This document shows positions 14,146 to 64,000 of a stretch of 64,000 bases of DNA, one piece after another. Made by a program: the position numbers and the translations under genes. The notes under the pieces were generated by a model. It had not been told where the DNA came from. It did no database searches and saw only the letters and a program-made list of their open reading frames with translations. The stretch lies in contig MNCI01002974.1 in the NCBI GenBank assembly GCA_015680685.1, forward strand, positions 115,433 to 179,432, in the 5' to 3' direction. The stretch comes from Gnetum montanum. Taxonomy: Eukaryota; Plantae; Gnetophyta. The first letter of the stretch is position 1; every line of letters starts with the position of its first letter.

Positions 14146-14478
14146 ATGTTAGATATTACGGAGGCCGTTAGAATACCTACAAGGCACCAAAAAGATAGTC
14201 GAATCAAGAGACTAGACATGAATAATATCCCACGGTTTGAGGGGGGATACAATGCTAATCCGCAAAACCACTTACAGGCATTCCACGATGCTTGTGCCTT
14301 GCAGAATACTGAAAATGAGTGGAAAAAGTTAAAGTTGTTTCCAAGGACACTCACAAAAGAAGTAAAAAGTTGGTACCAATCCTTAGAACCGGAAACCATT
14401 AGGAGGTGGAGTACAATGCTAGAATTGTTTAACAATAAATACCAAATGTACTCCATAGTGTCCAACTTGTGTAAGTAG
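14146..14478 (+). pseudogene. Retrotransposon gag domain fragment
   Basis: IPRFEG..NPQNHLQAFHDAC..KLKLFPRTLTKEVKSWYQSLEPETIRRWSTMLELFNNKY is a typical Ty3/Gypsy gag pattern. Confidence 0.85.
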
Positions 14479-26963: not shown

Positions 26964-29900
26964 ATGGCTGCACCCCCAGACCCTAGGAGCCATCAGCCCA
27001 TGGAGCAACTCCAGTGTTTTGAATTCTGTATTGACTCAAATCCATCGTGGTGTAAGTTCAAGGAATTAGTATGTCTGTATGATGACATTAGTACTGAGTA
27101 TTTCTTAATTCATTAGTTCTCAGATGATTTGCATTCTAAAACGGGGACAAATAAGAAATGCATTTGTACTTTTATTGGATCTCTGTATATCCCATGGCCA
27201 GGATCGTGTAATTTTTAAAACACTAATTTATGGGCAACTTTGTTGGAATGGACCGTTAAAGAGCATTTGGTTTATTTTTCTCATCGGGCATTCTGTTGTT
27301 GGTATCGATCCATTTGTAATCTGGTTGTTCTATTTTCTGTCAAATACTGAAACGGTCTTATGTTTTCTTATAAATATTTTGCTGCAGTTGAGGCTACTGT
27401 CTTGGCTTTTCAACATTATATTCTGATGTTAGGGACGACTGTTATAATCCCTACGTTTCTTGTTCCAGCCATGGGAGGAGATAATGTGAGTGATTGCCTG
27501 CTAGGCTACTTGTAGACTTTAACGGCACATTATTCATCAGTTAGCTAAACCATTCTGTTATTTTCTGATCTTGCGTAACAGCATGACAAGGCTAAGGTGA
27601 TACAAACATTATTGTTTGTCACTGGAATCAACACCCTTTTACAGACATTGTTTGGAACGAGATTACCAGCTGTTGTGGGTGCTTCCTTTGCATTTGTGAT
27701 CCCTATTACGTCTATCATAAATGATCCAACTTTCCATGAGATCGAAGATGACCATGAGGTATTTGCCTTGGTTCTAGACTTTGCCACATAGCTGTCTGTC
27801 TTGTGTTTTAAAACAATGTTAATGAATTACATGTCATTGTATTTTCAATGTTTACCAAATAGACCATGCTGTAATTTTGCAGAGATTTATTGGCACAATG
27901 AAAGCTATTCAAGGAGCATTGATAGCTTCTTCTAGTTTGCAAATTATCCTTGGTTACAGTCAACTGTGGGGCATCTTTTCTCGGTAATTATCCATTCGCT
28001 CTCCTTATTCACCTTCTTTGTAGATGCTATATACACACAAACATTTATTATAGGGGGCATCATTTAAAATAATGGTAAGGTACTAGTTTTTAAAGTGGGG
28101 AAGGTGTGGGTTTTAGCTTGGTGCACCTACTAGCCTTCTTGGGACCACTTGGGGGATGAGCGTTGTGCCTTCAGACGAAGACCCTTTTCTACATAATAAA
28201 CATTTATTCTATTATCAACATGAGCAGACATGAGTGTCAAATAGCCAATCCCAATGCTTATATATTAATTTATTGTAATTTTGTTGAATACAATGTCTTG
28301 GGGTAGATCTTATTTGACCTATTGAATTTGAATCACAGATTTTTCAGTCCACTGGGAATGACTCCGGTGGTTGCTCTGGTTGGATACGGGTTGTTTGGAC
28401 GCGGTTTTCCAGCGGTACGATTCCCTGTCTATACCATGTTTTTTTTCCCTCGTGAAAAAAATGCCTGTCAAAGCACTTCATTGTTTCTCTCTCTCTGTCT
28501 CTCTCTTTTTTGTCCTGTCCATAATTTGGATATCACAGTGAAAGGTTGGTTATGCTTCAGGTTGGCAAGTGTGTGGAAATTGGTTTACCTACTTTTCTTG
28601 TATTTGTAGCATTTTGTCAGGTATTTTCAATTGTTTTGTAATATGATTTTAGTATTTTACTTATTCATATTTAAATTCGTTTCCATGGACGACTGCATTC
28701 TGAAGAGTCTGATCTTGTTGTGCAGTATTTGAAGCATATACGCATCAAATCAAAACCTATTTTCGAGCGTTTTCCCGTGCTTATTTCTGTTGCACTTTTG
28801 TGGGCTTACTCTCATCTGCTTACTGCAAGTGGAGCTTATAAGCATGTTTCTTTACGGACAAAGGAACACTGTCGTACCGATAGAGCTCATCTCATATCAT
28901 CTGCTCCCTGGTATGCGAAACTGCATAAATATGAATACCATAGTTTTTTTTTTTCTTTTTTTCTTTATATTTACTACTACTTGGTTAGACAAAAATATAT
29001 CATTAAAAAAAACAAGTTTTGATAAAATTTATATTGAAAGGGCAACAGGCCATGCGCTTCTAATTTCCATAGCCAAATTGCCAATTCACTGAGTCACTGC
29101 AGAAATTTTCAAATAACAATTTAACACTTTTATATTTGCCAGGATCAAAGTTCCCTATCCATTTCAATGGGGTGCTCCAACATTTAGTGCAGGTCATGCA
29201 TTTGGAATGATGGCTGCTGTTTTTGTCTCACTTGTTGAGGTAAATTTTTGTATGCTATTTGGAATTTGATGTTTTCCACTCATGGTGATCAGAATGGAGT
29301 TCTTTAAGCTTACATTTAGGTAATTTCTGTGTTTTGTATAGTCAAATGGAGCATACATGGCTGCGTCTAGACTTGCTAGTGCAACTCCTCCACCTGCCTA
29401 TGTTCTTAGTCGGGGTATTGGCTGGCAGGTAGGTTCATTTGCTAACTGGTTTTTGCTATATGTTGGCCAAATAATTGCTCGGTATTTTAAAGAACATCTA
29501 AACAGCCAGATCATAACTAAGAGTAAATTTTCAAAATCATTATGTTGAAAACGAGATATTTTGTTTAGTAATGGAGTTCTTCTTTGAATTTGTATGAAAG
29601 TGAAAGGGGCATGTGCTAGTGTTGTGTGTAAATTTGCATTCTTGTGGCCAAGGCTTGAAATTTTCTGTGAAATTAATTTTGACATATACCAGGGAATTGG
29701 CATACTTCTAGATGGACTTTTTGGTACTGTCACTGGATCAACTGTTTCTGTGTGAGTAAAAATTTGTACCCTGTAAATGATTGAACTTCATTTAAGGATT
29801 TTCTTTAATTTTTCTTTTTATCTAATCTGTGCGCATATATTGTTTATTTGTTTCAGTGAAAATGTAGGTCTTCTTGGAGTTACTAGAGTAGGTAGTCGAC

Positions 29901-30687
29901 GTGTTATTCAAATATCAGCGGGATTTATGATATTCTTTTCCATATTAGGTACAGTGCTTTTCTTTGATATCTCCTTCTCAATAGTCTCTTGCGTTTCTTC
30001 CATGTTTAACATAATGCCGGGAATTCACCATGTTTTCAGGAAAGTTTGGAGCTCTTTTTGCATCAATACCGTTCCCTATATTTGCAGGATTCTACTGTGT
30101 TCTTTTTGGTATAGTTGGTGAGCACATCAACCCTTGATGTAATTGTAACCTAGACAATGTGAATTCTAATCATTACTTCGTTTCTGACCTTACCCTCAAT
30201 TTCTCAGGTGCTGTTGGACTGTCATTCAACCAATTCACAAATATGAACTCAATGCGGAATTTGTTTATTACCGGTGTTTCCTTATTTCTTGGGCTTTCAA
30301 TTCCTCAATATTTTAATGAATTCTATGATACTTCTAAGAGGGGTCCCGTCCATACACATGCAGGATGGGTAAGTTCCAAAGACAGACTATATTGCTTATC
30401 TTACTTTATCTCCTTGCTAACATTTCACCTTATTATATACTTACTTTTCGTTGGTAATTATGTTCTCTCTGCAGTTCAATGATATTCTCAACTCTATTTT
30501 CTCCTCACCTCCAACAGTTGCTCTAATCATCGCAGTGTTTTTAGATAACACTTTAGAGGTTGCAGAATCCAAGAAGGATAGGGGGATGCCATGGTGGGTT
30601 AAATTCAGGACATTCAGAGGAGATAGTAGAAATGAGGAGTTCTACACTCTTCCTTTTAACCTCAACAGATTTTTCCCACCGTCATGA
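26964..30687 (+). CDS. NAT2: Nucleobase-ascorbate transporter, NAT1/NAT2 clade, copy B, 14 exons, 523 aa
   Basis: Exons: 26964-27051, 27388-27485, 27582-27758, 27883-27983, 28339-28414, 28561-28620, 28726-28910, 29143-29239, 29342-29428, 29693-29751, 29857-29948, 30040-30117, 30208-30368, 30475-30687 (1572 nt). It has FQHY, ENVGLLGVTRVGSRRVIQIS and the C-terminus RNEEFYTLPFNLNRFFPPS, as I recall for Arabidopsis NAT2. Confidence 0.95.
28052..28188 (+). mobile_element. Degenerate family-2 SINE-like insertion in NAT-B intron 4
   Basis: GGGGGCATCATTT..ATGGTAAGGTACT..GGATGAGCGTTG resembles the copies at 34807 and 36340. It explains part of the longer intron compared with NAT-A. Confidence 0.45.
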
Positions 30688-40255: not shown

Positions 40256-43200
40256 TCACCAATAATCTCTGCATGAGCACTTACCATCTCTGAAATGATG
40301 GAAGCGGCTTGAATCTCTTACTATAATTTCCCTTTGAATGATCCCAGAAGTAAGTTTGATAAAATTATGACAGTCCATGCACACACGGAGATTCTTAATT
40401 ATGCAAATAGGTGCAGCTGAATACAAATTGATGAGAGCAAAAGCTAGAGCAAGCTTTTCACTATGATAGGTGATGGACCACACCTTCTGCTCATCATCTA
40501 CATCATGTTTTACAAGGTCTTTGTTAGGCATGTACCCCAGCTCTTTTATCTTAGAAATCAAGCTATTCAGTTGCAAGTAAATTTCATCTGATCGTGGATG
40601 TGAGGTATCATTTGCTAGAAATGAATGTATCTTGTTTTTTATTTCAATCCAACTGCACCCCGGCTGCTTCTTCACACTCTTCTCTCTCATCATTGCTCTA
40701 ACATTCTCCACATCAGTCCATCTACCACATCTAGCATATACGTTTGATAGCATAACATAATTCGAGGTCCTTTCTGGTTCCAACTTAAAAACTTCTTTTG
40801 CAGCAAATTTTGCAAGTTCAATGTTACCATAGGTGTTGCATTTACCCAAAAGTGCACTCCACATTGTAGCATTTGGCTTGCAGGGCATATTTCTGATAAG
40901 AGCCTTGGCCTCAGAAAACTGTCCTGCACGGCCAAGTAGATCAATCATGCATGCATAATGTTCTGGTTCTGGTTCTACCCCATACTTCTTGTGCATTGAA
41001 TTAAATAAAAGCCATCCTTCATCCACAAGGCCTGAATGACTGCAGGCATTCAGGACACCAACAAATGTGACAGGATCTGGAGCCTCACCCAATTCTTGCA
41101 TATGTTGAAACATTCCAAGTGCTTCCTTGCCCTGACCATGATAAGCATATCCTACAATAATTGCATTCCAAGATATAACATCATGCATATACATGCTATC
41201 AAAAATCTGCCTGGAGAGATCAATCCTGCCACATTTTGAATAAAATGTAATCAAAGCATTCCCGACAACATTCTTAGATCCAAACCCACTTTTAATAATG
41301 TTGACATGAACTTGCTTCCCTTGCCCCATTGCTGCTAACTCAGCACACACAGAAAGGGCACTGATAAATGTACACTCGTCAGGTCTTATACCTTCCAGCT
41401 GCATCTTGTAATATACTCTAAAAGCATCCTCATGATGTCCATTCTGTGCATATCCTGCAATCAAAGTATTCCATGACACAAGATTCCTTTCAGGCATGCT
41501 GTGAAACAACTGCAAACAATCTTTTATCATGTTCGATTGTGCGTAACCTGCCATCATTGTGTTCCATGAAACCGCATCTTTTGAAGGCATGGAATTGAAA
41601 AACTTGCTTGCTTTGTCAATGTCACCATGTTGGACATATCCACCAAGCATTGCATTCCATGAAACAATGTCATGTCTAGGCATTTTGTTGAAAATTTCTA
41701 AAGCATCGTCAAGTTTTCCATGTTGAATATATCCTGTAATCATGGCAGTCCATGCCACCACATTTGGATTGGGCATTTTATCAATATGTTTCCTTGCATC
41801 TTCTAATCTTCCTGACTGAACTAATCCAGTAATAATTGTACTCCATGAGACTGAATCATGCTTAGGCATTATTTGGAAAAGCTGGTAAGCCTCCTCCATC
41901 ATATGATTCTGAACATAACCTGATAACAGGGAAAAAGTAAGAAACCTTTAAAAGAACATACAAAATATAAATAAAATCTAACACCTGTTTGCAAAATCAT
42001 CAATACTTAAATGATAACAGAAGTAATCTTAGAACTGTAGAAGTAAATCATACCAGCAATCATGGCATTCCATGAAACAATATTCTTTTCTGGCATTTTG
42101 TCAAACAATTGTCGAGCTTCTAGAATCCTTCTGTTTTGTGCAAATCCAGTTACCATTGTTGCCCATGATACGGTGCTTTTAAAAGGCATTTTCTCAAATA
42201 GTTGATATGCATCATCAACCCTGCAAAAGTGAATTGTAAACAGATATAATGTTACAATGAGTAGTCGTTGCATGGAGCTACTTCCAATCAAATTGGCATC
42301 TTCCAAGTTAAAATGCAAATGTTCTAATCACTAAACAGTACTGAAAACATGCTATAAATTTTTTAAGCAGCCTAAGTAGTTAATTTAGGTGACACCTATC
42401 GAATGGTACAGAACACCCAAGAAAACATGATACTAAAACCAAAATAGTAGTTATGTTTATGTTTCCTGAATTGTTATTAAACCCAGTAACAAACAACAGC
42501 TACCTTTGGACTGTTTATGCTTTGTGTTCTTCATTGAACCTGATTTCCATGGGCTTGGATTTTTAGTGAATGGGCATGCTTTTAAGAGAGAAAGATATCT
42601 GGATTGTTGTCACAAAATATATCAATGGGCTGATGGAATTCATGCTCTAATTGTTCAAGTATTCCAGGTATAAGTATGTTGTAACTAACTAGAATTCACA
42701 ATACATTCACCTTCTGTAGTCAAAAGACTTACTGAACGTTGTCTCTCACTTTTCCAATAGATGTGCTTAAGACCATGAAATATGTTTGTTCCTGAAATTG
42801 ATTTTTGATGAGCGTCAAAGTGTCGCGTCAACGGCCCCGTTGACGCAACCTTGTCGATGGGGCCCCATTTACGTAGTGTTGCCTCATCGACAGGGCCGTG
42901 TTGACATAGCGTTTGCTACATCTACGAGGACCCATCGATACAATATTGTAGCAAAAACTATAAATATGAGCTCCCAACTGTGTTTATGGAGATTCAAGTC
43001 ATAGTAGTAGCAAAGCTCTTGTAGTTTGTCCATTTGAAAGTTAGAATATTTCTCTGAGTGCCCACAGCAAGAGTAAGAGAGCGTACAGATCCTTATTTGA
43101 GCACTATTGTACCTAAACCACACCAATGTGTACAGCAATAAAGATAAGCCTTTTGATCAAACCTTGCAGCACTTAAAATAGATTAATGATTTATTAATGC

Positions 43201-45246
43201 ATTTATTGTTTTCATGAAATATGCAATTAATTAAGATAAATTGGACTTTAAGCGATTAGTTAATTAATTAAGCTAAATAAATTAAGTACATAAGTACGAC
43301 CGCTTCAAGCATAAACACGTATTCGGATGGTAATCCCAACAACGTTATTGCTTGGTGCGCCCAACACCGTAGCGCTTGGCAACCCAGCAGTGAATACATG
43401 GGCTCAGGATGTGTACGGAAAGTGGGACATGTTAGGATTAGTTAAAGACTAGTTAAGTGGTTATATGAGATTAGTTGTTAAATTATTTCATCTTCTCTAC
43501 TCTAAGCACCAAAGAACATAAAACATAAAACAATAAAAATCATATGCCTCGATTACACTTAACCATACCTTTGTACATCACAAGTGTAATTGGGAAAACA
43601 ACTAACAACCTTCAGAGCAAGGTTGACTTCCTAGAAGACTAGTGTACCAAAAACTATATAGAGTCCGTGGAATTCGACCAGATCACATGTGAATGCTTCG
43701 TGATTCATATGGTTCTGCGTAGGGCTACCTCGCCACTCATCAATTTTCTATCATCAACTCTTCCTTCACAATAAGCATATCAAAAACATAAAATTTGTCA
43801 TCTCCATTATAAAATTTCCATCCCAATCCATATTTAAAAATCTCACAATTATGATTGCAACTCTCCATGCTTCAATTGCATAACCATTACTGACACAGCC
43901 AGAGCTCACTCATTTCCATAATCTAATACAGTAGTAAGTCATATCATGTTTTCAATGCTCAGCATTTTGTATATAAAATTTTGCTCAGCATTTCATAAAA
44001 ATGTTCAAATCTTTTTCCTATCATTTTCATCTTTCTTCTTCACCTGAAGCCTCCCTACTCATCCTGCCAAGCGAGGCTCCTAGGAGGGTCAGTAGAGGAG
44101 TAAAAGCCTAACCTCTTTGAGTGGCTGCCCAAGCTCAAACCTACATCTTTAGACATGGGAAACAATCACCTTACCATCCCTCCAAATGAATGGTCCCTTT
44201 TCCTACCATTTTCATCAGCACTTCTTAATTTGTATTTTATCTTATTGAATATTACTATCCTCTTTTGTCTGCAACATTTATCTACTTACGTTGAGCAAAG
44301 CAATATGCATATGCAGACATGACCCAAAAGGCAGTGGATAAGAATGAAGTAAGAAAAATTTTAAACAAATGTTGATAAATGCCAACCGTATCTGAAAGAA
44401 GAAGAAAAAACAAAACAGTCTTTACCTGTCACAGTGCACATAGCCTGCAATCATAGCGCACCAGGAAACAACATTCCTTGAAGGCATCTCATCAAAAACC
44501 CTCCTGGCCGCTTCAATCATGTAATTCTGAGAATAACCCGAAACCATAGCATTCCAAGATACCACATTCCTCTCTTTTGCCTTTTCAAAAACCCTTCTAG
44601 CTTCCTCCATTCTGCAATTCTTAGCATACCCAGCAATTATAGCATTACAAGAAGCTACAGTCTTATCTTCTAACCTATCAAAAATCTCTCTTGCATAATC
44701 TACCTGCCCATTATCACAGTAACCGGAAATCATGGCAGTCCAGGACACGTCGTCCCTCACGGGCATTTCATCAAACAATTGTCGGGCATTCCGCGTCTGT
44801 CCATTTCTGCAGTAGCCGGCAATCATTGCATTCCAGGAAACAACATTTCTGCTGGGCATCATGTCAAAAATTGCTCTGGCTTCTTTCATCATACCTTCGG
44901 CTCTGGCATAGGCTGATATCATGGAGTTCCACGACACTGTGTTTCTGCGCGGCATCGAGTCAAAAACTGATCGGGCTTCATCGATTCTACCGTGCTGAGC
45001 ATGGGTATTGATCAGGCAATTTGAGGTGTAAAGCAGTCCGCCTGTGTGATATGGGTTGTTTTTGCAGCTTTCATTTTTGTTGGTTAGGTTTTTCGGATCT
45101 CGCAATGCCGAGGATTTGCGCTCGAAATCTGAGTAATCGGGGTAGGTCCTGTCGGTGAACCGAGATTTCCTTTTGCGCCCGAAACAATGAATGGATCTTC
45201 TATGGATGGCAACTGAGAACACGCTTGCGATTCGTTTTTCTCTCAT
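40256..45246 (-). CDS. PLS-class PPR protein with E1-E2-DYW deaminase domain (organellar C-to-U editing factor), 3 exons, 883 aa
   Basis: Exons: 45246-44426, 42220-42054, 41919-40256. The GT-AG introns join in frame (2652 nt). It has a basic transit-peptide-like N-terminus, ~19 PPR motifs, the PG box KKQPGCSWIE, HSEKLA..CMDCH, and terminal DYW. Confidence 0.93.
42806..43742 (+). mobile_element. Solo LTR (937 bp) of the Athila-like family in PPR intron 1
   Basis: Runs TGATGAG...GGGCTACCTCGCCACTCATCA with a perfect TSD ATTTT (42801-42805, 43743-43747). Confidence 0.9.
44040..44200 (-). mobile_element. Family-2 SINE copy in PPR intron 1
   Basis: The reverse complement reads GGGACCATTCATTTGGAGGGATGGTAAGG..GAGGTTAGGCTTTT..GACCCTCCTAGGAGCC. 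Confidence 0.55.
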
Positions 45247-45807
45247 CTTTGGATTTCTTGCAGTTTTGTTGCATGTCTGTTATCAGGCATGAAACACATG
45301 GATCTGCATCATCAGTTGCTCGAGTTCTCTATATACGCTTGGCCTCAGTACCTGATAAGGCATTAGAGCTTGCGAATGTAATGCCTGTAAAATGCCAATA
45401 CGATGACATGCTCTGTAGCAGTTTGCCTTGGGTTTTCACTCTCGGGTCCGAGGTGTGGCAAGGGCGTATATCGCCGAAGAATAATATACATTATAAAGCA
45501 TCCATTCTGTTTGCATTTCTTACTAAAGACTCAGAGAGATCCCTTGAACTATCGAATGATGTTACTAATAAAGGAAAACATTAACCAGAGAATCTCCACC
45601 ATAAACCATGTTGCATTGAAATTTACAAATAACATAAATAAAAAACAAATGGATGAAAATAACTCCGAGTTCACTAAATAAAACTTCCTTCACCTTTGGG
45701 TTAAAACCATGTAAATATGAGTTGTGCTAAAGAGCATAATTCTTGAGTAGGGAAGATGTGAGAACCCAAAATCTTTTTTTAACAATATTACCCCCAAGAC
45801 ATAAACT

Positions 45808-46149: not shown

Positions 46150-49100
46150 ACTTGGAAACAACCATCGTTCCTCCTCATAGGCTTTGGCTTTATCCTTGTA
46201 CTCTTGAAAATTTGTAAGCCGTCGAGCCAAGTCTGCTATCACATCTCTTTGTCTTTGGTAGCTTGCTTTAACCACCTCTAGTTTAAAATTTGCAACTTCT
46301 AGCTTCTACAACGTTTTCTTGTGCTCCGCAAATTCTGCTTCATATTTGGTGTAGGTGGCAGCTACCTGCTTCTCGAGCTCTATCCTCGAGCACCCTACTA
46401 TCAACATGGCTAGATTGGCATACCGCAAGTTTGCCAAATTCATGTACTCTGTAAGATCTTGAATCTGCAAGTCCCAACTTTTAAGTTCTGCCTGGTGGGC
46501 AAATGCATGTGTCTAATATGCCCTGCCAATTAGTGTGTTGAGCACTAAAAGTTTTGATGTGGGCCTTGGCCATATGGAACTCCTTCTTAATGATTTGCTT
46601 ATACATCCTCACCTGGTCTCGAAAATGCTCCTTTAACTTTTCATGTCGCTTGGCCTCGTTTTGCCACGTGCTTATTTCGATGGCCGTCTTCTGATGAATT
46701 GCGCATACCTTCTCCATTGAGAGGGTTTGATTTTCTCTGGCCAAACGATTCATATCTTGATTGATCCTGATCAATTATTTTCATAACTGTTGAAAGTTTT
46801 CTTTGAGAACATTCTTCTATTTCTCCATAGCAGTCAACCGAAGATTGTCAGTAGCGAGTTGTTTATTCTCCTCTTGTAAGGTTCTACGTGCCTTGGCTTG
46901 CGTGTAAGTTCGCGCTTATGCCTTGGAGGCATCCTAGTCGGCCTTCTCTTTCTCCTCCGCCACTCTTTTATTAACCACCAACAATTTATTGAGTTGCTCG
47001 GTCCTAAAGGTGTCCAGTTGGTCTGCAGGAACAAATTGAGAGGGGTCCCGCTGTGCAGCTTACAGGGTTACGAGCCTCTCTTGAAGTTTTGCTGATTCTG
47101 CTTCTACATGCTTAGCCCTAATCTCTGCGATGACCAACTTTCCCTTGGTGGAGATGAGGTCTAATTGTGCTGTCGTGACATCTTGTGGAATGTTAAACAA
47201 GGACATCATTACTTGCCCTATTTGTAGCAATCAATCAAGGACATCCTCATGCTCTACAAGAGTCATCGAGGGACTGGCCAATGTTTGAGCATCACATGCT
47301 CCTGTGAAGTCTATCGATGGCACAACAGGGACGTTGAAGGATTCTTTGATGTGGTCTACAACCACTTCTGCGGCTCCTGCTGCATCTTAGTGCTACATGA
47401 CCACCACTGTGGCCCCTTCACTAGTCTCGAGTTGCACCTAAAAGGATGTAGCGTTCCCTAAAATCTGTTGTGACCAATTAGTCTCCCCTCCTCTTGTCTG
47501 AATGAACACCTCTCCCCATGCGTGATCTATAGAGACAATGAGCCGTATAGTATCATCGATGACACAGAAGAGATTAGCATCATCATGACTCCCCCAACTA
47601 ACCATCTTCGCGATGGCCATAAGATGTATCATCAGCGATCAATAATCTTGCGACAGCGGCAGTTAGTCTCGCTAGCTTATTGATGAGACGCGACTTACAC
47701 TAGGCCGCGATATTGCGTACGCGATATCGCGTCTTCTCCTGCGATATCGCGTNNNNNNNNNNNNNNNNNNNNNNNNNNNNNNNNNNNNNNNNNNNNNNNN
47801 NNNNNNNNNNNNNNNNNNNNNNNNNNNNNNNNNNNNNNNNNNNNNNNNNNNNNNNNNNNNNNNNNNNNNNNNNNNNNNNNNNNNNNNNNNNNNNNNNNNN
47901 NNNNNNNNNNNNNNNNNNNNNNNNNNNNNNNNNNNNNNNNNNNNNNNNNNNNNNNNNNNNNNNNNNNNNNNNNNNNNNNNNNNNNNNNNNNNNNNNNNNN
48001 NNNNNNNNNNNNNNNNNNNNNNNNNNNNNNNNNNNNNNNNNNNNNNNNNNNNNNNNNNNNNNNNNNNNNNNNNNNNNNNNNNNNNNNNNNNNNNNNNNNN
48101 NNNNNNNNNNNNNNNNNNNNNNNNNNNNNNNNNNNNNNNNNNNNNNNNNNNNNNNNNNNNNNNNNNNNNNNNNNNNNNNNNNNNNNNNNNNNNNNNNNNN
48201 NNNNNNNNNNNNNNNNNNNNNNNNNNNNNNNNNNNNNNNNNNNNNNNNNNNNNNNNNNNNNNNNNNNNNNNNNNNNNNNNNNNNNNNNNNNNNNNNNNNN
48301 NNNNNNNNNNNNNNNNNNNNNNNNNNNNNNNNNNNNNNNNNNNNNNNNNNNNNNNNNNNNNNNNNNNNNNNNNNNNNNNNNNNNNNNNNNNNNNNNNNNN
48401 NNNNNNNNNNNNNNNNNNNNNNNNNNNNNNNNNNNNNNNNNNNNNNNNNNNNNNNNNNNNNNNNNNNNNNNNNNNNNNNNNNNNNNNNNNNNNNNNNNNN
48501 NNNNNNNNNNNGAGTCTAGGGGTACCTCGCCACTCATCACTTATGCTAGGCCTTGCTTCTTGTTGTTGACTGGGCCTTGAGCTTGGGAGTTGGCTAGGCC
48601 TTGCAATTTGAGTTGTAGTGGGCCCTACCATCTGTTCTTGCTCTTGCTCTAGCTCCAATGTCTCACTAGCACTTTCTCTTGGAGTTGGTGGCTTCAGCAA
48701 TTCAGCTAATGAAGCATTTTGGGCTCTTTTAGGGACGTCATTGGTGTACCCCAGAATACCAGCATGCTTGCACAGCTTCCTGATGAGACAAGAGAAGAGA
48801 AACGCGAACTTCCCTATCTTGCATTCTTCGAACCACCTCAAGATCTCCATGAGATATAGATGGGGCAGGTTAGCATTAACCTTTCCCATCAATATCGCAC
48901 TTCCTCTTGCGGCATATGTTGAAATTCTGTTTAATCCTTTTATGGAGAAGGTGTGATAAGTACCAATCTTGAAGTAGATTCTCTCTTCCAACGTCAATTC
49001 TCCATATATCTTATCTTCTTTACCATATGCCCTATTCAACCAAATCTTTCATGCATCAACATCGAAGTGAGTGGACAGGTGAGCAACTTTTGACCCTGTG

Positions 49101-52002: not shown

Positions 52003-53145
52003 TCATGTAGTTCCTGGTGGAGGTGGCTCCTCCATTGGTGCTTTTTCTTTGTCTTGTGCTCCAAGCTTTGAGATTTGATGGCGTTGAAGTATGGCCTGGA
52101 GCTTCAAGTCTTCGGTCTGAGGGTCCTGTGCTATCCATGCTAATGTTCCAATGTTTGACGAAGTTGGCACTTCCCACAAATAGGGTAATTGCGGAAACAT
52201 TTGATTGGCCTTAACATACCAAGCCGCAAACACCCATCTTTCATCCTTATAGGCTTTGGCTTTATTTTTGTATTCTTGGAAATTCGCTAGTTGTCGAGCT
52301 AAATCTGCTGTGACACCTTTTTGGCCTTAGTAGCTTGCCTTTACCACCTCAAGTTCAGAATTTGCAATCTCTAGTTTTTCCAACAACTTCTTGCGTTTTG
52401 CAAATTCTGCTTCATATTTAACATAGGTGGTTGCTACTTGTTGCTCGAGCTCTATTCTCGAGCGCCCTGCTATTAACATGGCAAGGTTGGCATACCGTAG
52501 GTTTACCAACTCCATGTATTCTATCAAATCTTGGATCTGCAGGTCTTGGTTCTTAACTTCCACTTGGTGGGCAAAGGCATATGTGTCCAATATGGCCCAC
52601 CAATCAGTGTGTTGAGCACTAATAGCGTTGATGTGGGTCTTGGCCATATGGATCTTCTTCTCAAGGATTTGTTTGTACATTCCCACCTGGTCTCAGAAGT
52701 GCTCCTTTAGCTTTTCATGCCATTTAGCCTCATTTTGCCACACGCTTATTTCAATGGCTGTCTTTTGGCAAATTGCACGTACCTCCTCCATTGAGAGGGT
52801 TTGATTCTCTTTGGCTAAATAGCTTATGTCTTGGTTGACCCAGATAAATTGTTCTCACAACTGATGGAAATGTTCTTCGAGAACGTTCTTTTGCTTCTCT
52901 GTGGTAGTCAACCGAAGGTTGTTGGCAACAAGTTGCTTATTTTTTTCCTGTAGGGCGTTAAGTGCCTTGAGATGCACATGAGTTTGCGCTTGTGCTGCGG
53001 AGGCATCCCAAAAAGCCTTCTCTTTTTCTTCAGCCACCTTTTTATTCTCTATGATTAGCTTGGTTAGTTGCTCAGTTCTGCAATTATCTAGCTGGTCTGC
53101 GGGAACAAATTGCAAAGGGTCCCGCTGTGCTGCTTGTAGGGCCAT
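52003..53145 (-). pseudogene. Second copy of the env-like ORF 3' coiled-coil region
   Basis: Collinear with 46150-47070 (HMAKTHI..SAQHT, LRYANLAMLI, YVKYEAEFA). Confidence 0.75.
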
Positions 53146-54669
53146 TGAAACACCACAAAATTCTGAGCTTAGTACTTTTCTAACAAGAATCAAGTTAAGT
53201 CATGACTCTCCCCAGCATGATTAGAGCTTGAGGACCCCACACACAGTTTCAAGCAGAGTCGAACTCAACAAGAAACAGTTTACTGGGACCCACAGACGGC
53301 AACAGCGACATTTGGTATCAAACATGGCAACTTCGGAGCTCAAGATACTTAGTTTTCACTAAGTATGCAATATGCAGCGTATACGCCCAACGTATATGCC
53401 AAGCATACATTCCCAGCGTATATGCCCAACATACATTCCCAGCGTATACGTCTAGTGTATACGCCCAACGTACACGCCTCACATATATGCTCAGCATGTA
53501 TGACTGATGTGTACGCCCAACATGTAATCCCAAAGATGGCATGGAAACTACACTTCAGAGCAAGATTTTGTACAAAGCATTAACTCATAGGAACAGAGCA
53601 ATTATCAGGTGTCATCATGGGCTCTAGAAAGTCGAATTTTGGCCTCGACATCATGCACTTTGGAGTTCATACGCTGAGCATGTACATCCTGCACACCTAG
53701 CGTATACGCCCAGCATGTACGCCCAGCGTATACGCCCACCATGTACAATGTGTACACTCAGTGTGTAGCACAACGTATACTAATCAAAGCTCTCCAAAAT
53801 CGTGTCAGATCAAGGCCAACCATGCTAAACATCCATAGGCAGCATTCTCATGACATCCGAATTCAAATCCGAAGGCCGAATAACTTCTTTTGTTTTGATC
53901 AAGTCTATACGCTGAGTTCACACGCCGAGCATGTATACGCTGGCGTGTAGCATGCTGTACATTTGTAAAATTTCATTCTTTCGCATTCAGTCAACGCACC
54001 ACATGTCACCTGACCTGAGAGTCCAACACTCCACAACCAATCATCCTCTCTCAGATCCGAGTCTAATGTATAAACTTATATAAAAATCCCAATTTTTCAC
54101 TAAATCGGGGTTGGCAATTTTAGAGCAAACTAGAGACAAAAAAAAAGAACCAGAGACACTGAGAAACCAGAGCAAAACAAAAACCTGTACGCTGGACCTC
54201 AACCTTACATGCTAAGCATACAACCTTCATGCTGTGCCTGCAGTTCAAACCAGCACATAATCATCCCTCCACATCCACCGGGGCTCTTCGTCCGCCTTGT
54301 GTCAGATTCACAACTGCGTTAGACCGTTGCATTGTAACTTTCCGTTTTGCAATAATATTGCCACATTTCTTTTGCTAAGATTTGTTCCAGTTTTTCGTTC
54401 ATTATTATATGCTTATTGTTTACATTCCTGTACGTTTACACTCTGTTTTACATTAGTTACGCCATTTACATATAACCCAGTGTACAGTATATCGGTGTAC
54501 GTTTGGGAAAATCCTTGTCTGATCCGCGTGCGGACCACTCAAGGTACTCTGCCTTTGTTAATTCCAGCTTACCCTCAAGCAAAGGTAGGGTCTTCTGTGC
54601 TTGTCCAGGAATCTCCTGGTTTCTATTTCATTCCAGCCGGAGACCGACAATTTTGGACTGTATAGAAAA

Positions 54670-54686
54670 TGGCACTAGAAGGAGGG
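54670..54686 (+). promoter_or_regulatory. Primer-binding site, tRNA-Asn type
   Basis: TGGCACTAGAAGGAGGG differs at one base from TGGCGCTAGAAGGAGGG, the complement of the plant tRNA-Asn 3' end as recalled. This primer type is used by some Tat-lineage elements. Confidence 0.75.
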
Positions 54687-54807
54687 CGTCAAACTATTTA
54701 AACTTACTATGATCTCATACCCTGGTCTTCCCAGATTCACATCGCACCGACACCAAACCCGGCTCTGAAACTCCCAAATCAGTACCCCGTTCTATAGAAT
54801 TCCCAGC

Positions 54808-55277
54808 GTCTACACGTTGCTCAGTCTACGCCGTACGCTATAGATTCTGTGTATACGCTGCTCAGTATATCTGTACGTTGTACGTTGTAGACTCTATCTA
54901 CACGCTGCTCCGTATACCTGTACGCTGTACGCTATAAACTCTGTTTATACGCTGCTCAGTATACCTGTACGTTGTATGCTGTAGACCCTGTCTACATGCT
55001 TTTCAGTATACCTGTACGTTATACATCGTAGACCCTGTCTACATGCTGTTTAGTATATCTGTACGCTGTACGCTGTAGACCCTGTCTACACGCTGCTCAG
55101 TTCACGCTCTACACTGTATGCTGTAGACCCTGTTTACACGCTGTTCAGTATACCTGTACGCTATGCATTGTCAACCTTGTCTACACGCTGTTCAGTATAC
55201 CTGTACGCTATGCGTTGTCGACCCTGTCTACACGCTGCTCCGTATACTTGTACGTTGTACATTGTAGATCCTATACG
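54808..55277 (+). repeat. 47-bp tandem array, ~10 copies
   Basis: Consensus GACCCTGTCTACACGCTGCTCAGTATACCTGTACGCTGTACGCTGTA. GACCCTG occurs at 54984, 55031 and 55078. Confidence 0.9.
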
Positions 55278-55379
55278 TTGGTTGTTGGAGCCTATAGGCT
55301 GAGATCCAGTCTATACGCTGTACGCTGCGGACTTAGGTGTATGCTCCGATAAGTATACCAGTTTCATATCCCTTTCACC

Positions 55380-58300
55380 ATGCTACATTCACAACCGTTC
55401 ACCATGAACACTGCGAACCCCAATGCTTCAACCAAACCCATCACAGATATCGTAGGTCCCATGGCCGTTCAATAACCCGTAGTACAACCCACGACAGGGC
55501 CTCGTCGGTCTCTCAAATTGCAAGGAAGGAACCCATCATTTAACATTATAACTCAGGAACAATACAATTTCATATGTGTAAAAATACAAGCCGGCCTAGC
55601 CGTGGATCAAACCGAAATGGAGGTTAAGAGACAATATGAACTCTTCCATAGGGAAGGACATGAGTTCATCCCTTCCTCGTATGATATCATCCCTTTCCCA
55701 GAGCACTACTTTGAGCTCATCTCACAACTTCTCCTACTAAGGAGTCAGTCTCTAGACCAGTCTGTGGCAAATCCTCAATTGGAGGAGGAGGATGACTTCG
55801 CAGCTCAGTCCGAGCACAAAGATTCGTACCATACCCTTAGCCCACAAACCTATGCAAACCCATTGTTTCATCCAGCCACAGGGGAAGCTACGTCCCTCCA
55901 ACCATTTAAAATCACCCAAGCACAGATACCTCAACAGGAATCATTCACGCTTATCCCTACTCCTCCTGTAACCAATGTGTAACTCAACACACTTCCCCTT
56001 GCTATTCCTCCTGTTGCAACAGTATCCCCATTCTCGCAAATACAACCTCCTCAAAATAATGTAGGAGTAACCTTCCTGCCTCGAGTGATTGGGATGCCGC
56101 ATGTGATATCGGCTTCTACATTCGCTCACTATATACTGCAGATCCAAACCCAAGGAGCATCCTTTACAACTGTAACTCAACAAGTTCAGGGTGTTCCTAC
56201 ACAAAGTGTGACCGGGTAATGGGCAGCGATTGGGGCTCAACTGCATCAACCCCCTCACTATAACATATCGCCTCATACAATTTTACCAGCTAACATCCCT
56301 CAAGGACAACCACAACAACAACAGCAACCCCTTACCTACAATGTGCCACTCCTAGTACCACCCGCCACAAATATTCTGCAAGTGCAGCCTTCAACCACAC
56401 AACTTTCTTCCTTCCAGCCCACTGTCCAACAATCTAACCTATATACTGTACAACATCCTCAACCTACTATCTCACCTAGTGCCCAAGACTGGGCTGATGC
56501 CAAAAAGCTAATGCAAGAGCTAACTGATGAGGTCAAATGCCTCAAAATAGCCACTGACGGAGAGCTTAAAGTAGTGGACTTCTATCACAATGACCCTATC
56601 AGCTCTTCAGTTCTGCCTCTAACACTACCTAAGGGTGTTTCCTTACCCATGCTGACTAAATACAACGAGGAGATAGACCCCAACGCTCACCTTATAACAT
56701 TTAGACTCGAATGCATGCTACTTCAGGCGTGGCCACATGCCATTCTGTGAGTGTTCCCCATGTCCCTCGTAGGGAGAGCACTTGATTGGTATTGGGCCTT
56801 GCCACAAAATTCAATATCTTCTCTAGAAGATTTGTTACACCAATTCGTTACTAGGTTCAAGTATAACTTGAAGCCTGAAGCAACACGTGACAGCCTCATA
56901 CAGGTCAAGCAAGCACCTCTTGAACCTGTCCAAAAATTCATTCAACGGTGGAGTGCTGCCCTCAATGAGCTCCACGAGCCAATCCCGGAGACATATCTCC
57001 TCACGATTCTAAAAAACATTGTAAATGATTTTGTCAAGTCCAAATTATATTATCTCAATGCACGCACTCTTAGTCAGGTGTTTGTACATATCAAGAACAT
57101 AGAGGAGGCAGTCCAAAACAGCCACGACCCTGCATATTCAGCCTTTAGAAACCAACATAATAAGAAAGACAAAGAAAAGGCTAAAACAACTATAGCGGTA
57201 GTAGCGAAAACACAACAAGCAAATGCGGGACAACAAAGCAAACCTCCTGCTGCCCCTGCTCATTACGCTAAACCTACTGCTGCGACGGCACCCGAATCAT
57301 CCGCATCACAAAACCCTACACTGGGTCGTACGAGAAACTTCGAGAGGAAGGACCCCTCTCAATATACACCGTTGCCCATGAAACTGTCGCAGTTATTTGA
57401 CCAACTCTTGAAGGCCAGACTGATGAAACATAAACAGTTCTCCCGTACAGCGATCCAAAGACATGATCGGTTCTGTCAATTGGTTCAGAACCCAAGCCTG
57501 GCAATGCCAGATGAGCCCCCAGTTCCAAAAGGCTTTAGAATGGATCGTTTTTGTGATTATCATCAATGTAATGGGCATGGCATTGACTATTGTTTCACCC
57601 TAAAACAAGATATCCAACGAATGATCAACGGAGGTCAAATCACTTTTGATGAAGCCAACCCAATCCAACTACAAAACCAAGCCATGGGCGTATATAAAGA
57701 TCCTCTAAATACTAAAGAAGCACCATATGTAATTAACACCATTTACTTCGATAATGAACCAGAAACACCTAGGATTAACACCGTCCATTCCGATCATGAG
57801 CAGCAAATGCCTAAGAAACCATTTGTAGTGCACATTCCTCTCACTGTACAAACACCTATGCCTCAACCATCATACCCCCCACAAAAACTTTATGTCATCC
57901 GAATACCCCCCACCGTAGCAACTTCTATCATACCACCACGTGAAAAACCATACATGGTGCATGTACCTCCCGCCACTACTACCGCAAACACACAAGCACC
58001 TCCTACTCGGCCCGCTCCCTACGTAGTCCGAGTATCACCTGCGGTCGCAACTACGGAGGCACAACCTCCAACTAGGCCAACTCCATATGTTGTTAGGATA
58101 CTCGAACGTCTTGATGACCACCAATCCTCCACTTCGCAGACATAGAATAAACCGATCCCCTATGTCATCAAGATGCCTAGCTAGCCTGACACTCAATCGC
58201 ATTCAACCATCCAACCGCAACCCCACCCTACTCCATACGTTGTACAGGTTCCAAAGCAACCTGAGGTTCCAAAACCAACTGTAGTACCTTATCCCATCGT

Positions 58301-58979
58301 CGAACAATTAGGGCTTATAGAGCTAATTAAACCAACCACCACCATGTGTTTGAAATCGTTCAGTGGATCACGCGTAGTAGTCAAAGGCACAATGACTTTG
58401 GACTTTATAGCAGGGGACCAATTCCCCACATCTGTCGACTTTGTGGTCATCGATGAAATGCCAAGGTTCAATTTAATATTGGGAAGGCCCTGGTTAGCCC
58501 AACTGAAGGCAGTCTCTTCCCCCATACACCAAGAGATTCACCTGCCTTATGAAGGTGGCGAAATCATTATACATGGGGAGGCTGCTACACCTACCATCTC
58601 ATCACATACAGACACAGACCAAGTCTCAGAGGTTAAGTTCGAAGAGCCTAAACAAGATGATACAAATGAACAACAAAGATGCACGCAATCAGTAAGCAAT
58701 GATCTCTTAGACACAAAGAAAAATTTACCCAACACAGAAATACTTAGGCCTGAAATTGTACATATACAGCCTCACTTAGAAACTACAACAAATGTAGAAA
58801 CTACAGTACATGCAGAAGTGTCAGAAAGCACCAACGCGGGAACTGTTCCATTAGACGTCCCTTGGGCTGAATTACCGTTCAACGTGATCAGTGAAGGAGA
58901 CGCTGAATATAGGATCATACCTGTTAATGCTACTCCTAATGTTAAAATGAAGAAAATTAAAAAATTACTAAGCCAATAA
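55380..58979 (+). pseudogene. Tat-type gag + truncated protease reading frame with in-frame stops
   Basis: One frame throughout. It reads LPKGVSLP..KYNEEIDPNAHL, FPMSLVGRALDWY, the zinc knuckle CDYHQCNGHGIDYC, and the protease C-half VDFVVIDE..FNLILGRPWL. Confidence 0.85.
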
Positions 58980-59912
58980 ACGACATTAAAGTCTGAAACG
59001 ACGTTAAACTACCTTCATAGTCCGAAACGACGTTAAACTATCACGTCCGCAACGACATAAAACTAGCCACGATCAAAAATGGTCGGTCTACCAAGAAATC
59101 CACCAGTGTCACTTGAAACTTCCCTTATTTACACATGGCCCAAAATGGCCTTAAACTAGTGCATGGGGTCCGAAATGGCCTTAAACTAAACCACTTGCTT
59201 ACACTTTGTTTTTTCTCGCAAATTCGAGTTCATGGTTCGAATTTACGTTTGTATTGTCATGTTATCAATAATAGTTTTTCTTCACATTTTCCTTTTCACA
59301 ATTCCTTCGCTTATAACTACATTCCTACTTGCATTCCCACTTTGTGCATTACATTTAAACAGCAAAACAAAAAAAAAACATTTTACATTTCCGCATCGTG
59401 TTTACATTTAAACTCAAAAGTCAGAAATAATAATAATAATAATATATATATATAGAAATGTATGTATATACGGTTAGACATGTACAACAGTTAACTAATT
59501 CCATTCACCAGTTTAATACAATCTAAGGCAAAACATTCAGTTTACAATTCATGTAAAATTATGAGCCAGGACAGTTTCAAAGTCAAAATTAAACATCAGG
59601 AGCGGGAGGTCTCTCCCCTTCAGACTCACCGGCACAATGGGTCCCCGCTCCGCTGGGGCCAGCTTCTTGAACATCGTCCTCGCCTCAACCCTATAAAAAG
59701 CAAAAGAAACAATCAACACAAGAACAAAAGAGAAAACTCCCAAACATTACTCAACGAACAAAATGCAAAACAAACAAAATGCTTACTGTAGGAGACCCCC
59801 CTAAACCGAATTCCAACCGATGGAGAATTTCTTCCTTTGAGACGCTAGCCTAGTCAATCCCATCGAGGCCCAGATCGACGTTCGCTAAGGCCTTCCCCTT
59901 GTCAACCGCCGA

Positions 59913-62900
59913 TCATGTGGGACGTTTCAAGTGAAATTCACCCACAAAGACCTCCCTAGAAGCAGTCGTAATCACCCTCGTGGGCGATTCCATCTCAACA
60001 ATGGTATTCTTAGCAAAGGTATCAAATGCAGAACATAGACCCAGACCCTCTACGAACATTTCAAGCTGACACTTCTCTATAGATACTTCCTTTAATGATT
60101 TCTTATAATGATGCTTTTGGTTCTTCTCATCTTGACCCCACTTTCGCACCTTGGAAGCGAAAGCCTTCCAATCCTGACACTTGAGGTTCAGTAAATCTAT
60201 CTGGGCCTTACGCTTTGCTAGCTTCCGAGTTAGTGATGCATGGCGATTTAGCAAGTTCCAATATTTGGTATAAGTGATCTCGGAAGTTCGCCAAGAACGA
60301 TCACCTATTAATCTAGCCGAGGCAAACTCATAACGAGCCTTAATATCATAACGTTCAGTTGATAACTCGAAAACCTCTTTTTCCTTTGCCTGGATCTGCA
60401 ACCATAGTTGTTCAATGGAACGCCTATAGGTCCAAAGCAATTTGGCGTTATGCACAAGACATTCCGCCACCTCATCATAGACCTATCTCGGTATCTGTTC
60501 AACTTCTAGTGGTAGTGCAGGCAAGCTCTCAATACAAACGGTCTGAGACGGGTCCCACTTCAGCTTAGCTCCTACACACATGAAAAGAATAGGCATTAGA
60601 TCTTAGATGGCAAAAAAGAGTGTGAAACTTGAAGGCTGCAAAACACTTGAGACATCTGTACCTATTTCAAGGTGGGCCTGCTGAATGCGTTCGACCACCT
60701 CGTCGACGATACTGGTGACGAAATCCATTTTGCTTGGCATCTCGGTCCAAGTAAATGGTTCATGAGTGTGAGATGGATTAGCCTCAGGGGTCGTTTCAGG
60801 GGGAGCCACTATCATAGGCACTTCTAACCGCATTGTAGGAATCGTCCTAGTTTCAATATCTTCGTCTGGAAGCGATAAAAAACATAAAATTAGAACACCA
60901 CATGATGGAAACAACAATTCACAAGGCAACGCAATAAAAAAAAAGGGAATATACTGAGTTCTCTGTTCCCTTCCCAGTTCGGAGGGTCACCAGGGTCCAA
61001 TTTTCCCTTAAGGAAGCTATTAAACATTTCATCGACACCATCCTGGTCATCGACCAGTTCTGTCTTCGTGGTGTCTTTCGCCAGCTCTTCAGTCACTTCC
61101 ACCTGATCTTTGCCGACCTCTTCCTCCTCAATCATTAAATCCATTGGAACTTCCTCCTCCTCGATAATGGTTTCTAGCTCCTGCCTCCTCACTTTCCGAG
61201 TCAGGTCTGAAGACATTAGTTTCATGTAAGTAGTCAAAACAAAAAAATAATGAATAAGACGAAAATGACAATACAATAAGTGCATCAAGCTTACTTACCT
61301 CGAACAGGCATTTTGAATTATATTCGCTTCACCCTTGGCTCTTCCACAGTTGAGGCCACCTCTTTAGGGCATTCGCACTTTTGAATCTTCGATTTGGCTT
61401 TCCCGATGATCTCCTTGATCGCCCGATCAGCCCTCCTAGCAGTGTAGAGCACATTGTCTGGTTCCAACCCCACACTATCACGTGTATGGATTGAAGTATC
61501 AGATGACGCCTCTGTTGTGATGGAAATCGATTCATCGATCCCCTTGGGTGCATCTTGAGACTCAGCTACCTCGAACAAATGGTTAATCCATGGGCGAGAT
61601 AATTGAGTATGATCCCACAAAACATATTTATTATCTGCACCACTAGAAATTCAGCCAAGCGATGTAGATAACTTGCGAAGAATGCGAAGGTAAAATGGGA
61701 CTCTGCCTCAACATTTGAACGTAATCACACTATCTCCCTATGGAAACCCGACAACAAAAATTGGGCCCAATTATAATGCATCCCGGTCTCTAAAATGGTC
61801 CACATGATGTGCACGACTTCCACCCCAAGACTCTTCACTTAAGATAGGGATTTAGGAAATACCCGTGCCCTAAATAGGGGATACAGTTCATTGACTTCCA
61901 CCACCTTTGATGTTCCCTGCATAAGGAACCCCTTAGAGCCCTTGAGAATGCCTAACCAATCTTCCAGCTCACGCACCACATGGAGCTCTTTTTGTGCCTT
62001 GTCCAAAACCACATTCACACCATCTACCGGGACACCGAAGAGGTCTGAAAAGAACTCGGTTGATAGATGAAAAATTATTTTGACACCCTTAATACGGGTG
62101 TTGTAGTAAGTGACAGAGTTGTCGAATGAATCAACAATTCCAATCATTTCAGCTATAGAGACATCAAGGCTCAGGGTTGTGAATAGCTCCATGAGGCTGG
62201 CATCATTCAAACAACAGACAATAGATGGTGGGGCACTGGTACGCAACCATCGCTGCGCCTTGCTGACCTCCCCAAATTTCATCGACAGGGTGCTCTCAGT
62301 CCGCCCTGTCGTAACAGGGTCTCCACCGGGGGGGATGTTAACTATAAACACAATTTAAAACCATAGCACCAATATGACTAACGTTGCAGCCGAATAAACA
62401 GACTAAGGCGTCAGGGAAATATCATCACTTACCTTCAGTCGTGGGTGTCACGTTGCTAGGACCCAAGTCAGTATCACGGGGGAAAATCGGTCCATTGCGT
62501 GACCAATCTCCATGCAGCCACCCTCGAGCCGTGCATTGCGCAAACGCCCTAGAAAATCACTTAGGAAAATAAACAATGTCACCCTTAGTCTGAGCTAATA
62601 TAGCTCCGCGGAGGGTGGGACCTGCCATGAAGGTCTCTAAAGCAGTGTGAGCCAGTGCAAGTCTATCATCATTGATGCATATTCCATCTTTATCAACTTG
62701 GAGCCTGCAAAAGAACGATCATCAGAACAGGAGCAAACACCAAACAACAAAATAGGAACGGCAAATTAAACAACTTTACCTCTCTACCCTGTACACCATG
62801 TCCAGAGGGTTCTGAAATAATGTATGTGCACACGTGGCCAAAAACAAGGTGCTATTGAGATAGTGAGGCCCACGTGGCAATAAGTCCCATACGCACAATA

Positions 62901-63229
62901 AGGAATGGGTAGATCTGGACCCTCTAGAGGGACCGTCCTCAATCACAAGCGGTCCCTCGTCAATGTCCATCATGAAAGCTATGACACCATTTGAAGATCC
63001 TGGCAACATTACTTCGAGCACGCTCTACGCTACCTGTTCGCTTAGGTGGGACCATATCACTACCTTGAATCCGTCTAAGATGAAGGCAAGGAACTCATAG
63101 GTCTCTTCCCTGAACCATACCCCATTGTTATTAATAGTCAGATTAGGGGCAGGTTCGTTGGTATCAAGGGGCCCAAACCAGGCCAGTACCCTAACCAGCT
63201 CAACCACTAAGAGGAAAGGTTCAGGATCC
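59913..63229 (-). pseudogene. Antisense multi-exon cargo gene: FCP1/NIF-like HAD pseudo-phosphatase + PMD-like domain + coiled coil (~960 codons, decaying)
   Basis: Exons: 63229-62780, 62704-62433, 62341-61299, 61206-60955, 60865-60662, 60571-59913. Five GT-AG introns of 75-92 nt all join in frame. It has a few in-frame stops and one frameshift near 61640. Confidence 0.75.
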
Positions 63230-63325
63230 CTGCAAATAACTAGAATACCATAGTAAATCAGTTATACACGGAAATGAAGTAGAGAAAAGAAGTTCCATGT
63301 TGAAGGCCAAGACTTCGAAAAAAAT

Positions 63326-63781
63326 TGCAAACTGTCTACACTTAGCGTGCAGACCCTGCATGCTACAAAATTGTTTACGCCCAACGTGTAAACCCTACAT
63401 GTTGCGAAAATTGCCTCCGCTCAGCGTGCATACCCTGCACGCTATGAAAACTGTCTACGCCCAACGTGCAAACCCTGCACATTGCAATACTGTTTACACC
63501 CAGCTTGCAGACCCTACACGCTGTGAAAACTGTCTACGCTCAGCGTGCAGACCCTGCACGCTGTGAAAACTGTCTACGCCCAGCGTGCAGACCCTGTACG
63601 TTGCAAAACTGTTTACGCTTAGTGTGTAGACTCTGTATGTTGCGAAAACTGTTTACGCCCAACGTGGAGACCTTGTACGCTGCGAAAACTATTTACACCC
63701 AGCATGGAGACCCTGCACGCTGCGAAAACTGTCTACACCCAACGTGCAGACCCTGTACATTGCAAAACTGTTTACGCCCAG
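63326..63781 (+). repeat. 40-bp tandem array, ~11 copies
   Basis: Consensus GAAAACTGTCTACGCCCAGCGTGCAGACCCTGCACGCTGT. GAAAAC occurs at 63525 and 63565. Confidence 0.9.
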
Positions 63782-64000
63782 TGATGAGTGGCGAGGTACC
63801 CCTACACTCAACCATACAAATACGAGCGTGCACGCGCGATCCGGTCGAACTCCACAGACTAAATGCCTTAACGCCACAAGAAACACTTGGGGTTAATTGT
63901 TCGTTGTCTTCCCAGGCTTGCTTGTAAGTGTCACGGTGTATGGTTAAGCAAGTCTGAGGTATGTGATTTTTTTGGTATTTTCGGCTTATCTTCTATGCTA
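63782..64000 (-). mobile_element. Athila-like LTR inserted into the 40-bp array (runs off the window)
   Basis: Starts with the family terminus TGATGAGTGGCGAGGTACCCCTACACTCAACCATAC. Confidence 0.85.

Follow-up and report, generated by a model that had tools for sequence, protein, structure and literature searches.

The window (the whole stretch of DNA analysed, 64,000 nucleotides long) contains, within what appears to be an abundant Tat/Ogre-like LTR retrotransposon, an antisense gene carrying a degenerate phosphatase domain of the NIF/FCP1 type. NIF ancestry of this domain is almost certain, judging from several sequence comparisons, and its catalytic residues have very probably been lost in most copies of the family, the reading frame of which is likely to be under purifying selection. 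The captured, dead domain is proposed, with moderate confidence, to be the front module of an antisense accessory protein, in which it would bind a partner instead of dephosphorylating it. A dead NIF domain in this known kind of antisense accessory ORF is apparently an undescribed cargo.

The antisense gene and its transcripts

A multi-exon gene on the minus strand spans positions 63229 to about 59913, antisense to gag. Its features are as follows:

62780..63229, minus strand, degenerate NIF/FCP1-type HAD core exon (Pfam, protein search, NIF profile and alignment; splice sites predicted)
63201-63190, minus strand, motif I, E replacing D
63051-63049, minus strand, motif II Ser, kept
62907-62905, minus strand, motif III, H replacing K
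62838-62833, minus strand, motif IV, AT replacing DD
62705..62779, minus strand, intron 1, GT-AG, 75 nt (predicted)
62433..62704, minus strand, exon 2 (predicted; in phase with exons 1 and 3; stop at 62559-62557 in the window copy)
62342..62432, minus strand, intron 2, GT-AG, 91 nt (predicted; RNA depth lower there in run X11)
61299..62341, minus strand, exon 3, second globular domain (predicted)
60572..60661, minus strand, intron, GT-AG, 90 nt (joint in RNA: 4 reads in X14, 8 reads in X15)
59913..60571, minus strand, last exon, coiled-coil-like (weak Filament/HAUS1 matches, E 0.07-0.09)

The original prediction described a NIF/FCP1-like motif order spread over the first two exons of a pseudo-phosphatase. 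The peptide that it quoted is minus strand 63228-62782, and all of its motifs lie in one exon. This exon starts at an acceptor at 63230, upstream of which no start codon lies in frame. A different exon must therefore come first; it is presumably missing or located beyond the insertion described below. Exon 2 alone does not match the NIF profile (E=0.25), and it may hold the C-terminal NIF helix. The prediction had also overlooked the stops of the window copy. There is an in-frame stop at 63027-63025, inside the NIF-like exon and hidden by the dots in the quoted peptide, and together with the stop at 62559-62557 it means that the protein cannot come from this copy, which is a decayed pseudogene unable to make protein.

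In exon 3 the frame is further broken by stops at 61841-61839 and 61727-61725, and it shifts near 61650-61690. The middle domain that this exon encodes has, in this broken copy, no Pfam match, including PMD or TRP28, and its leads in Atlas are all below 0.9 (ATHILA ORF-1, 0.86; Transposase_32, 0.81). Identification of this domain as a PMD was considered but received no Pfam support; the matches to PDB sequences (archaeal RNA polymerase, E 0.4-0.6) look like chance.

RNA evidence was obtained from the raw reads of four runs from two studies. Depth over the antisense gene is low (mostly 1-20), and near zero over exon 1 in X12. The reads are mostly less than 95% identical to the window copy, and the RNA therefore comes from other copies of the family. 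First mates in X11 fall almost solely on the plus strand, which corresponds to minus-strand RNA under the usual stranded library. No joint was found for introns 1 and 2 in the four runs. Exons 1-3 and the coiled-coil exon would form one protein, and their splice phases agree; if the stop at 62559-62557 is real in the family, the NIF-like protein stands alone. The genomic RNA being of the opposite strand, the antisense gene can probably retain its introns when the element retrotransposes.

The retrotransposon

The antisense gene lies in a retrotransposon-like unit extending from about 53300 to 63781, with these features:

54670..54686, plus strand, primer-binding-site-like motif, upstream of gag
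54827..55272, plus strand, 47-bp tandem array, between the primer-binding-site-like motif and gag
56580..58142, plus strand, gag with one in-frame stop (PF03732, E=1.2e-7)
58185..58979, plus strand, ORF with a weak, partial protease match (RVP_2, E=0.17, profile positions 83-130 of 136)
63329..63781, plus strand, 40-bp tandem array, upstream of the antisense gene
63782..64000, minus strand, LTR end of another abundant family (nested insertion likely)

The element has a PF03732-type gag before the protease, for which the match is weak and partial, and an antisense extra ORF on the 3' side, as in Tat elements. No ORF for reverse transcriptase (RT), RNase H or integrase is present downstream of the protease-like ORF in the ORF list of the window. 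The sequence suggests a Tat/Ogre-like element with no RT in this copy. At 58185-58979, a long Pro-rich stretch after gag is followed by only the C-terminal half of a protease; the catalytic N-terminal half seems to be absent. The primer-binding-site-like motif is presumably of the tRNA-Asn type, and none of four loci with this motif had a match to NIF or to the element.

The 47-bp and 40-bp arrays have 28 8-mers in common, against a background maximum of 10 (246 tiles), which suggests that the two halves belong to one element. The adjoining gag supports the original description of the domain as retrotransposon cargo, and linkage of the antisense gene to gag would be expected across copies. The motif AGACCCTG has nine of its ten plus-strand copies in the window inside the two arrays, and may represent candidate cis-binding sites. 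The LTR at 63782, together with the window edge, hides the element's own 3' end. This LTR family has related ends near 4907, 10856, 19137, 43742, 48541 and 51025, and loose ends of RNA beside 63778 show a primer-binding site, presumably of the Athila tRNA-Asp type.

Homology with NIF phosphatases

The searches for NIF homology made use of the read-through peptide of the exon, with an X at the stop. PF03031 (NIF) was the sole Pfam family matched, as the original prediction had anticipated, with E=0.0077 and a score (16.4 bits) under the gathering score of 21.8. UBLCP1, a NIF protein (PDB 3shq), was one of two weak matches among PDB sequences (E=0.74). A search of 1,835,955,588 proteins returned a single protein below E 0.001, a tandem-NIF protein of a chytrid fungus (E=1.4e-4), in which NIF is recognised at E=6.5e-40. 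The scores of its two NIF domains add, so this match is uninformative on the donor. A profile of 21 NIF domains, which was derived from the chytrid match and is not independent of the protein search, gave the read-through 24.1 bits, against at most 6.7 bits for 2,000 shuffles and the reversed sequence; the best non-overlapping piece among 2,544 pieces of the window reached 6.1 bits. The read-through aligned with 16 NIF homologues and was collinear with them from end to end, in keeping with the motif order originally read by eye. The nearest relatives found are the DLNG subgroup (for example Chytriomyces KAJ3385173.1) and UBLCP1, rather than FCP1 or SCP1 themselves.

The domain shares with the NIF/FCP1 HAD phosphatases (PF03031) the hydrophobic strand before motif I, the FxR..EFL helix, VxxW[ST], LxxxW, the N.T.(hydrophobic) strand and NP, at about 25% identity. 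It differs from them in the replacement of the motif I Asp, the motif III Lys and the motif IV DD, in its location inside a transposon and in its predicted fusion to transposon domains.

Word-indexed searches for protein relatives of the read-through confirmed none of 218 and none of nine candidates, and none of 76 stretches held up in a search of metagenome loci; these protein and locus searches yielded neither an intact copy nor a protein of the family. The domain was presumably captured from a DLNG-type host gene, and there was no plant NIF donor among the NIF homologues retrieved. A horizontal origin from chytrid fungi was weighed but not taken up, as the scores of the two NIF domains of the top match add and there was no plant NIF for a tree.

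The single-sequence structural model has a pLDDT of 36 and is uninformative, and no HAD protein is present among the 50 structure-search (VIA) matches listed. The alignment-guided model (pLDDT 75) resembles SCP1 and CTDNEP1 (TM about 0.6), and also the CTD-like phosphatases of giant viruses, but these predicted likenesses are circular, because the model was built on NIF homologues.

Loss of the catalytic residues

The Lys of motif III contacts phosphate and the acids of motif IV bind Mg. In the alignment, E10 of the read-through stands opposite an Asp in 16/16 homologues (motif I), H108 opposite a Lys in 16/16 (motif III) and A131/T132 opposite DD in 15/15 (motif IV). The prediction that the motif I Asp and the DDS motif had been replaced is thus borne out, with the motif III Lys lost besides. 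W59-S60 stands opposite W-T/S, and the Ser of motif II is therefore kept. The nucleophile of these enzymes is the first Asp of hhhhDxDx(T/V) (PMC8346121, partial text); motif I of the homologues reads DLNG or DING, not DxD.

The state of these residues in the family was assessed with DNA contigs from four runs (organism codes A-D, three studies), one of which (X1) may share the source of the window. Between 1,779 and 2,207 contigs per run were placed on 62790-63240, at thresholds of 80% likeness and 40% share, below which subfamilies (<40% share or <80% identity) are invisible. The analysis concerns 40 differences listed of 42. At a 40% share in the four runs, none of these 40 affects codons 10, 12 or 108. 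Differences are present at codons 131-132, none of the 40 listed giving Asp, and the only listed difference at codon 60 (motif II Ser) is silent. Codon 13 is Gly in 96-98% of the family depth; read without a gap, the motif would place this residue opposite the Gly of DLNG, but MAFFT put a gap there. Counts by kind show that a C>T (X1, X7) and a C>G (X5) make up the two unlisted differences. The latter might conceivably lie in codon 10 in X5, although depth is high there and unlisted differences have the least support. The pseudo-phosphatase reading thus stands for most copies of the family, on sequence evidence.

Probable selection on the reading frame

The stop at 63027-63025 is not family-wide, as two of its letters differ in 56-88% of the depth, and no indel at a share of at least 40% is present across 62790-63240 among the 40 differences listed of 42 for the four DNA runs. 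Silent changes were counted for 38 differences, the two in the stop codon being left out, with a split at a mean share of 0.75; contig depth is no count of copies, and this applies to all shares given here. Of the differences with a mean share below 0.75, which are differences among copies, 16/23 are silent versus 7.2 expected (p about 1.6e-4), whereas only 1/15 of those above 0.75, which are largely private to the window copy, are silent (Fisher p 1.6e-4). The outcome holds when the split is moved to 0.7 or 0.8, and the contrast weakens with a cut at 0.9 (Fisher p 0.053). In the other five frames, 2-11 of the 23 intermediate-share differences are silent. All four transversions are silent, and the pooled transitions (13/34 silent) are close to neutral, so the selection signal rests on the split by share.

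The silent-rich pattern is compatible with purifying selection while lineages replicate and neutral decay of the copies once they are inserted. A first stop that is not family-wide and shared differences that are mostly silent point to purifying selection on the family's frame. The residues of the family are not more NIF-like than those of the window copy: with respect to the fungal NIF profile, six changes are toward it, 14 are away from it and one is the same, and the idea that they would be more NIF-like was dropped.

Possible role of the domain

In the mechanism proposed, a NIF/FCP1-type domain would have been captured from a host gene, with subsequent loss of three catalytic sites. The accessory protein would consist, in order, of the dead NIF domain, the middle domain, an acidic linker and the coiled coil, with a promoter of its own close to the 40-bp array driving its expression. 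The middle domain would act on the chromatin or repeats of the element, the coiled coil would oligomerise the protein, and the dead NIF domain would bring in a phosphorylated factor of the host or protect it. A specific binding role of the dead domain seems reasonably probable on the analysis presented here, and binding via the former substrate groove is suggested because of an analogy with yeast Tim50. Fungal Tim50 has a non-catalytic NIF fold without DxDx(T/V) and binds peptides (PMC8346121, partial text). It provides an example of a NIF fold that lacks the motif and is reused for peptide binding, as an analogy only; Tim50 is a receptor for mitochondrial import in the cell. With the Lys and the acidic residues lost, the dead domain is more likely to bind proteins in general than to read phosphate specifically. 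A more elaborate scheme, in which a pseudo-phosphatase with a chromatin-targeting domain and a coiled coil would dock on the element's arrays and trap a phosphorylated factor of the host, either the Pol II CTD or a silencing protein, or shield it, serving as an anti-silencing factor behind the expansion across at least four related plants, is distinctly unlikely.

The captured relic might be required only as a folded unit that spaces or stabilises the accessory protein, with no specific binding. The selection data show constraint on the protein and not on a surface, and none of the three catalytic sites survives, the phosphate-binding Lys being among those lost, which argues against phosphate recognition; however, the stretch kept in a high-copy element is about 450 bp or more long, which suggests a benefit, and this explanation is rather unlikely.

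Because phosphate-specific reading is less likely, a decoy for the phosphorylated CTD of RNA polymerase II is possible and not favoured. Such a decoy would shield the CTD from host CPL/SCP phosphatases and so boost transcription of the element. The antisense gene is transcribed and the alignment-guided model resembles SCP1/CTDNEP1, a likeness subject to the circularity described above, but the closest relatives found are of the DLNG type and UBLCP1, and the residues that would contact phosphate and bind Mg are lost, making this role improbable.

A neutrally decaying captured fragment, amplified as a passenger, would require no protein. The several stops and the frame change of the window copy, the near-neutral pooled transitions and the low RNA depth would all suit a fragment of this kind, but the shared differences are silent-rich in this frame only, the first stop is not family-wide, no indel reaches a 40% share and one intron is spliced, so that a mere passenger is very improbable. 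That a retrotransposon ORF evolving fast has come to resemble NIF by chance is barely tenable, as Pfam, PDB sequences and the 1.84-billion-protein search agree on a family named beforehand, with an alignment collinear from end to end and shuffles scoring far lower, although each score is modest and other ORFs of the window have spurious Pfam matches at E 0.006-0.016.

Relation to known systems

Antisense ORFs with a PMD and a coiled coil, together with a Gag-protease fusion, mark the Tat lineages of angiosperms, and Tat lineage V has antisense 3' ORFs with a PMD plus a coiled coil (PMC4408406, partial text). The antisense ORFs of Retand elements contain TRP28, SMC-like and a few other domains, and the available text on these ORFs has no occurrence of "FCP1", "phosphatase" or "HAD" (PMC11963269, partial text). 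The gene described here resembles the extra ORFs of Tat, Ogre and Retand elements in being an antisense ORF downstream of gag-protease with a C-terminal coiled coil, arrays and weak transcription (PMC4408406, PMC11963269, PMC6317226, each in partial text). It differs from them in its N-terminal NIF-derived domain, which has no counterpart in the portions of the published domain lists available, and in being intron-rich, with no RT in this copy and a middle domain without a PMD or TRP28 match. The REXdb table of extra-ORF domains has 12 entries and no NIF, although this domain would fall short of the 1e-10 threshold used there (PMC6317226, partial text). A screen of 121 genomes reported 15 extra domains, with no NIF among those named in the section consulted (PMC9289625, partial text). 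The same study described a captured AlkB m6A demethylase in orchid Gypsy elements (PMC9289625, partial text), another case of an enzyme domain of the host that has become fixed in a family of plant Ty3/Gypsy elements; AlkB is catalytically active, whereas the NIF relic is devoid of catalytic residues. The word "phosphatase" does not occur in the available main text of an atlas of Arabidopsis transposon products (PMC13547354) or of a review of gene capture (PMC13317346). The listings of papers searched, drawn largely from outside the subscription literature, showed no report of NIF cargo in retrotransposons, in agreement with the original remark that this domain was not known as LTR-retrotransposon cargo.

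In the PMD-PP7/PP7L modules of plants (MAIN, MAIL1 and MAIL3), a phosphatase domain is likewise paired with, or fused to, a domain related to transposons (PMC7156037, partial text). Those phosphatase domains are of the PPP type and belong to host silencing genes, whereas the HAD-type relic is in an element and its partner domain has no PMD match.

According to a 2020 review, the antisense extra ORFs of plant Ty3/Gypsy elements have no clear similarity to host proteins and are of unknown origin (PMC7264820, partial text). The gene described here would be one antisense extra ORF in which an enzyme domain of the host can still be recognised; the domain was inactivated, but protein-level selection would have preserved it in a high-copy family. 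The gene would constitute evidence for the capture of host domains into antisense extra ORFs and for the production of a pseudoenzyme by a transposon, and the former substrate groove would provide a defined surface for the question of the host partner.

Other features of the window

Two minus-strand coding stretches (46156-47067 and 52228-53141) are 77% alike and contain coiled-coil-like ORFs, probably of another element family, and 48520-49048 has a weak match to Transposase_32 (E=0.0023). PPR genes or fragments are located on the minus strand at 40259-41947, at 44422-45279 and near 32741, one of them with E, E+ and DYW domains; the PPR-DYW genes at 40259-45279 identify the DNA as that of a plant. 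A multi-exon host gene at 22177-30479 resembles, by eye, a nucleobase-ascorbate transporter. A second decayed gag (PF03732, E=0.0074) lies at 14035-15851, beside an assembly gap.
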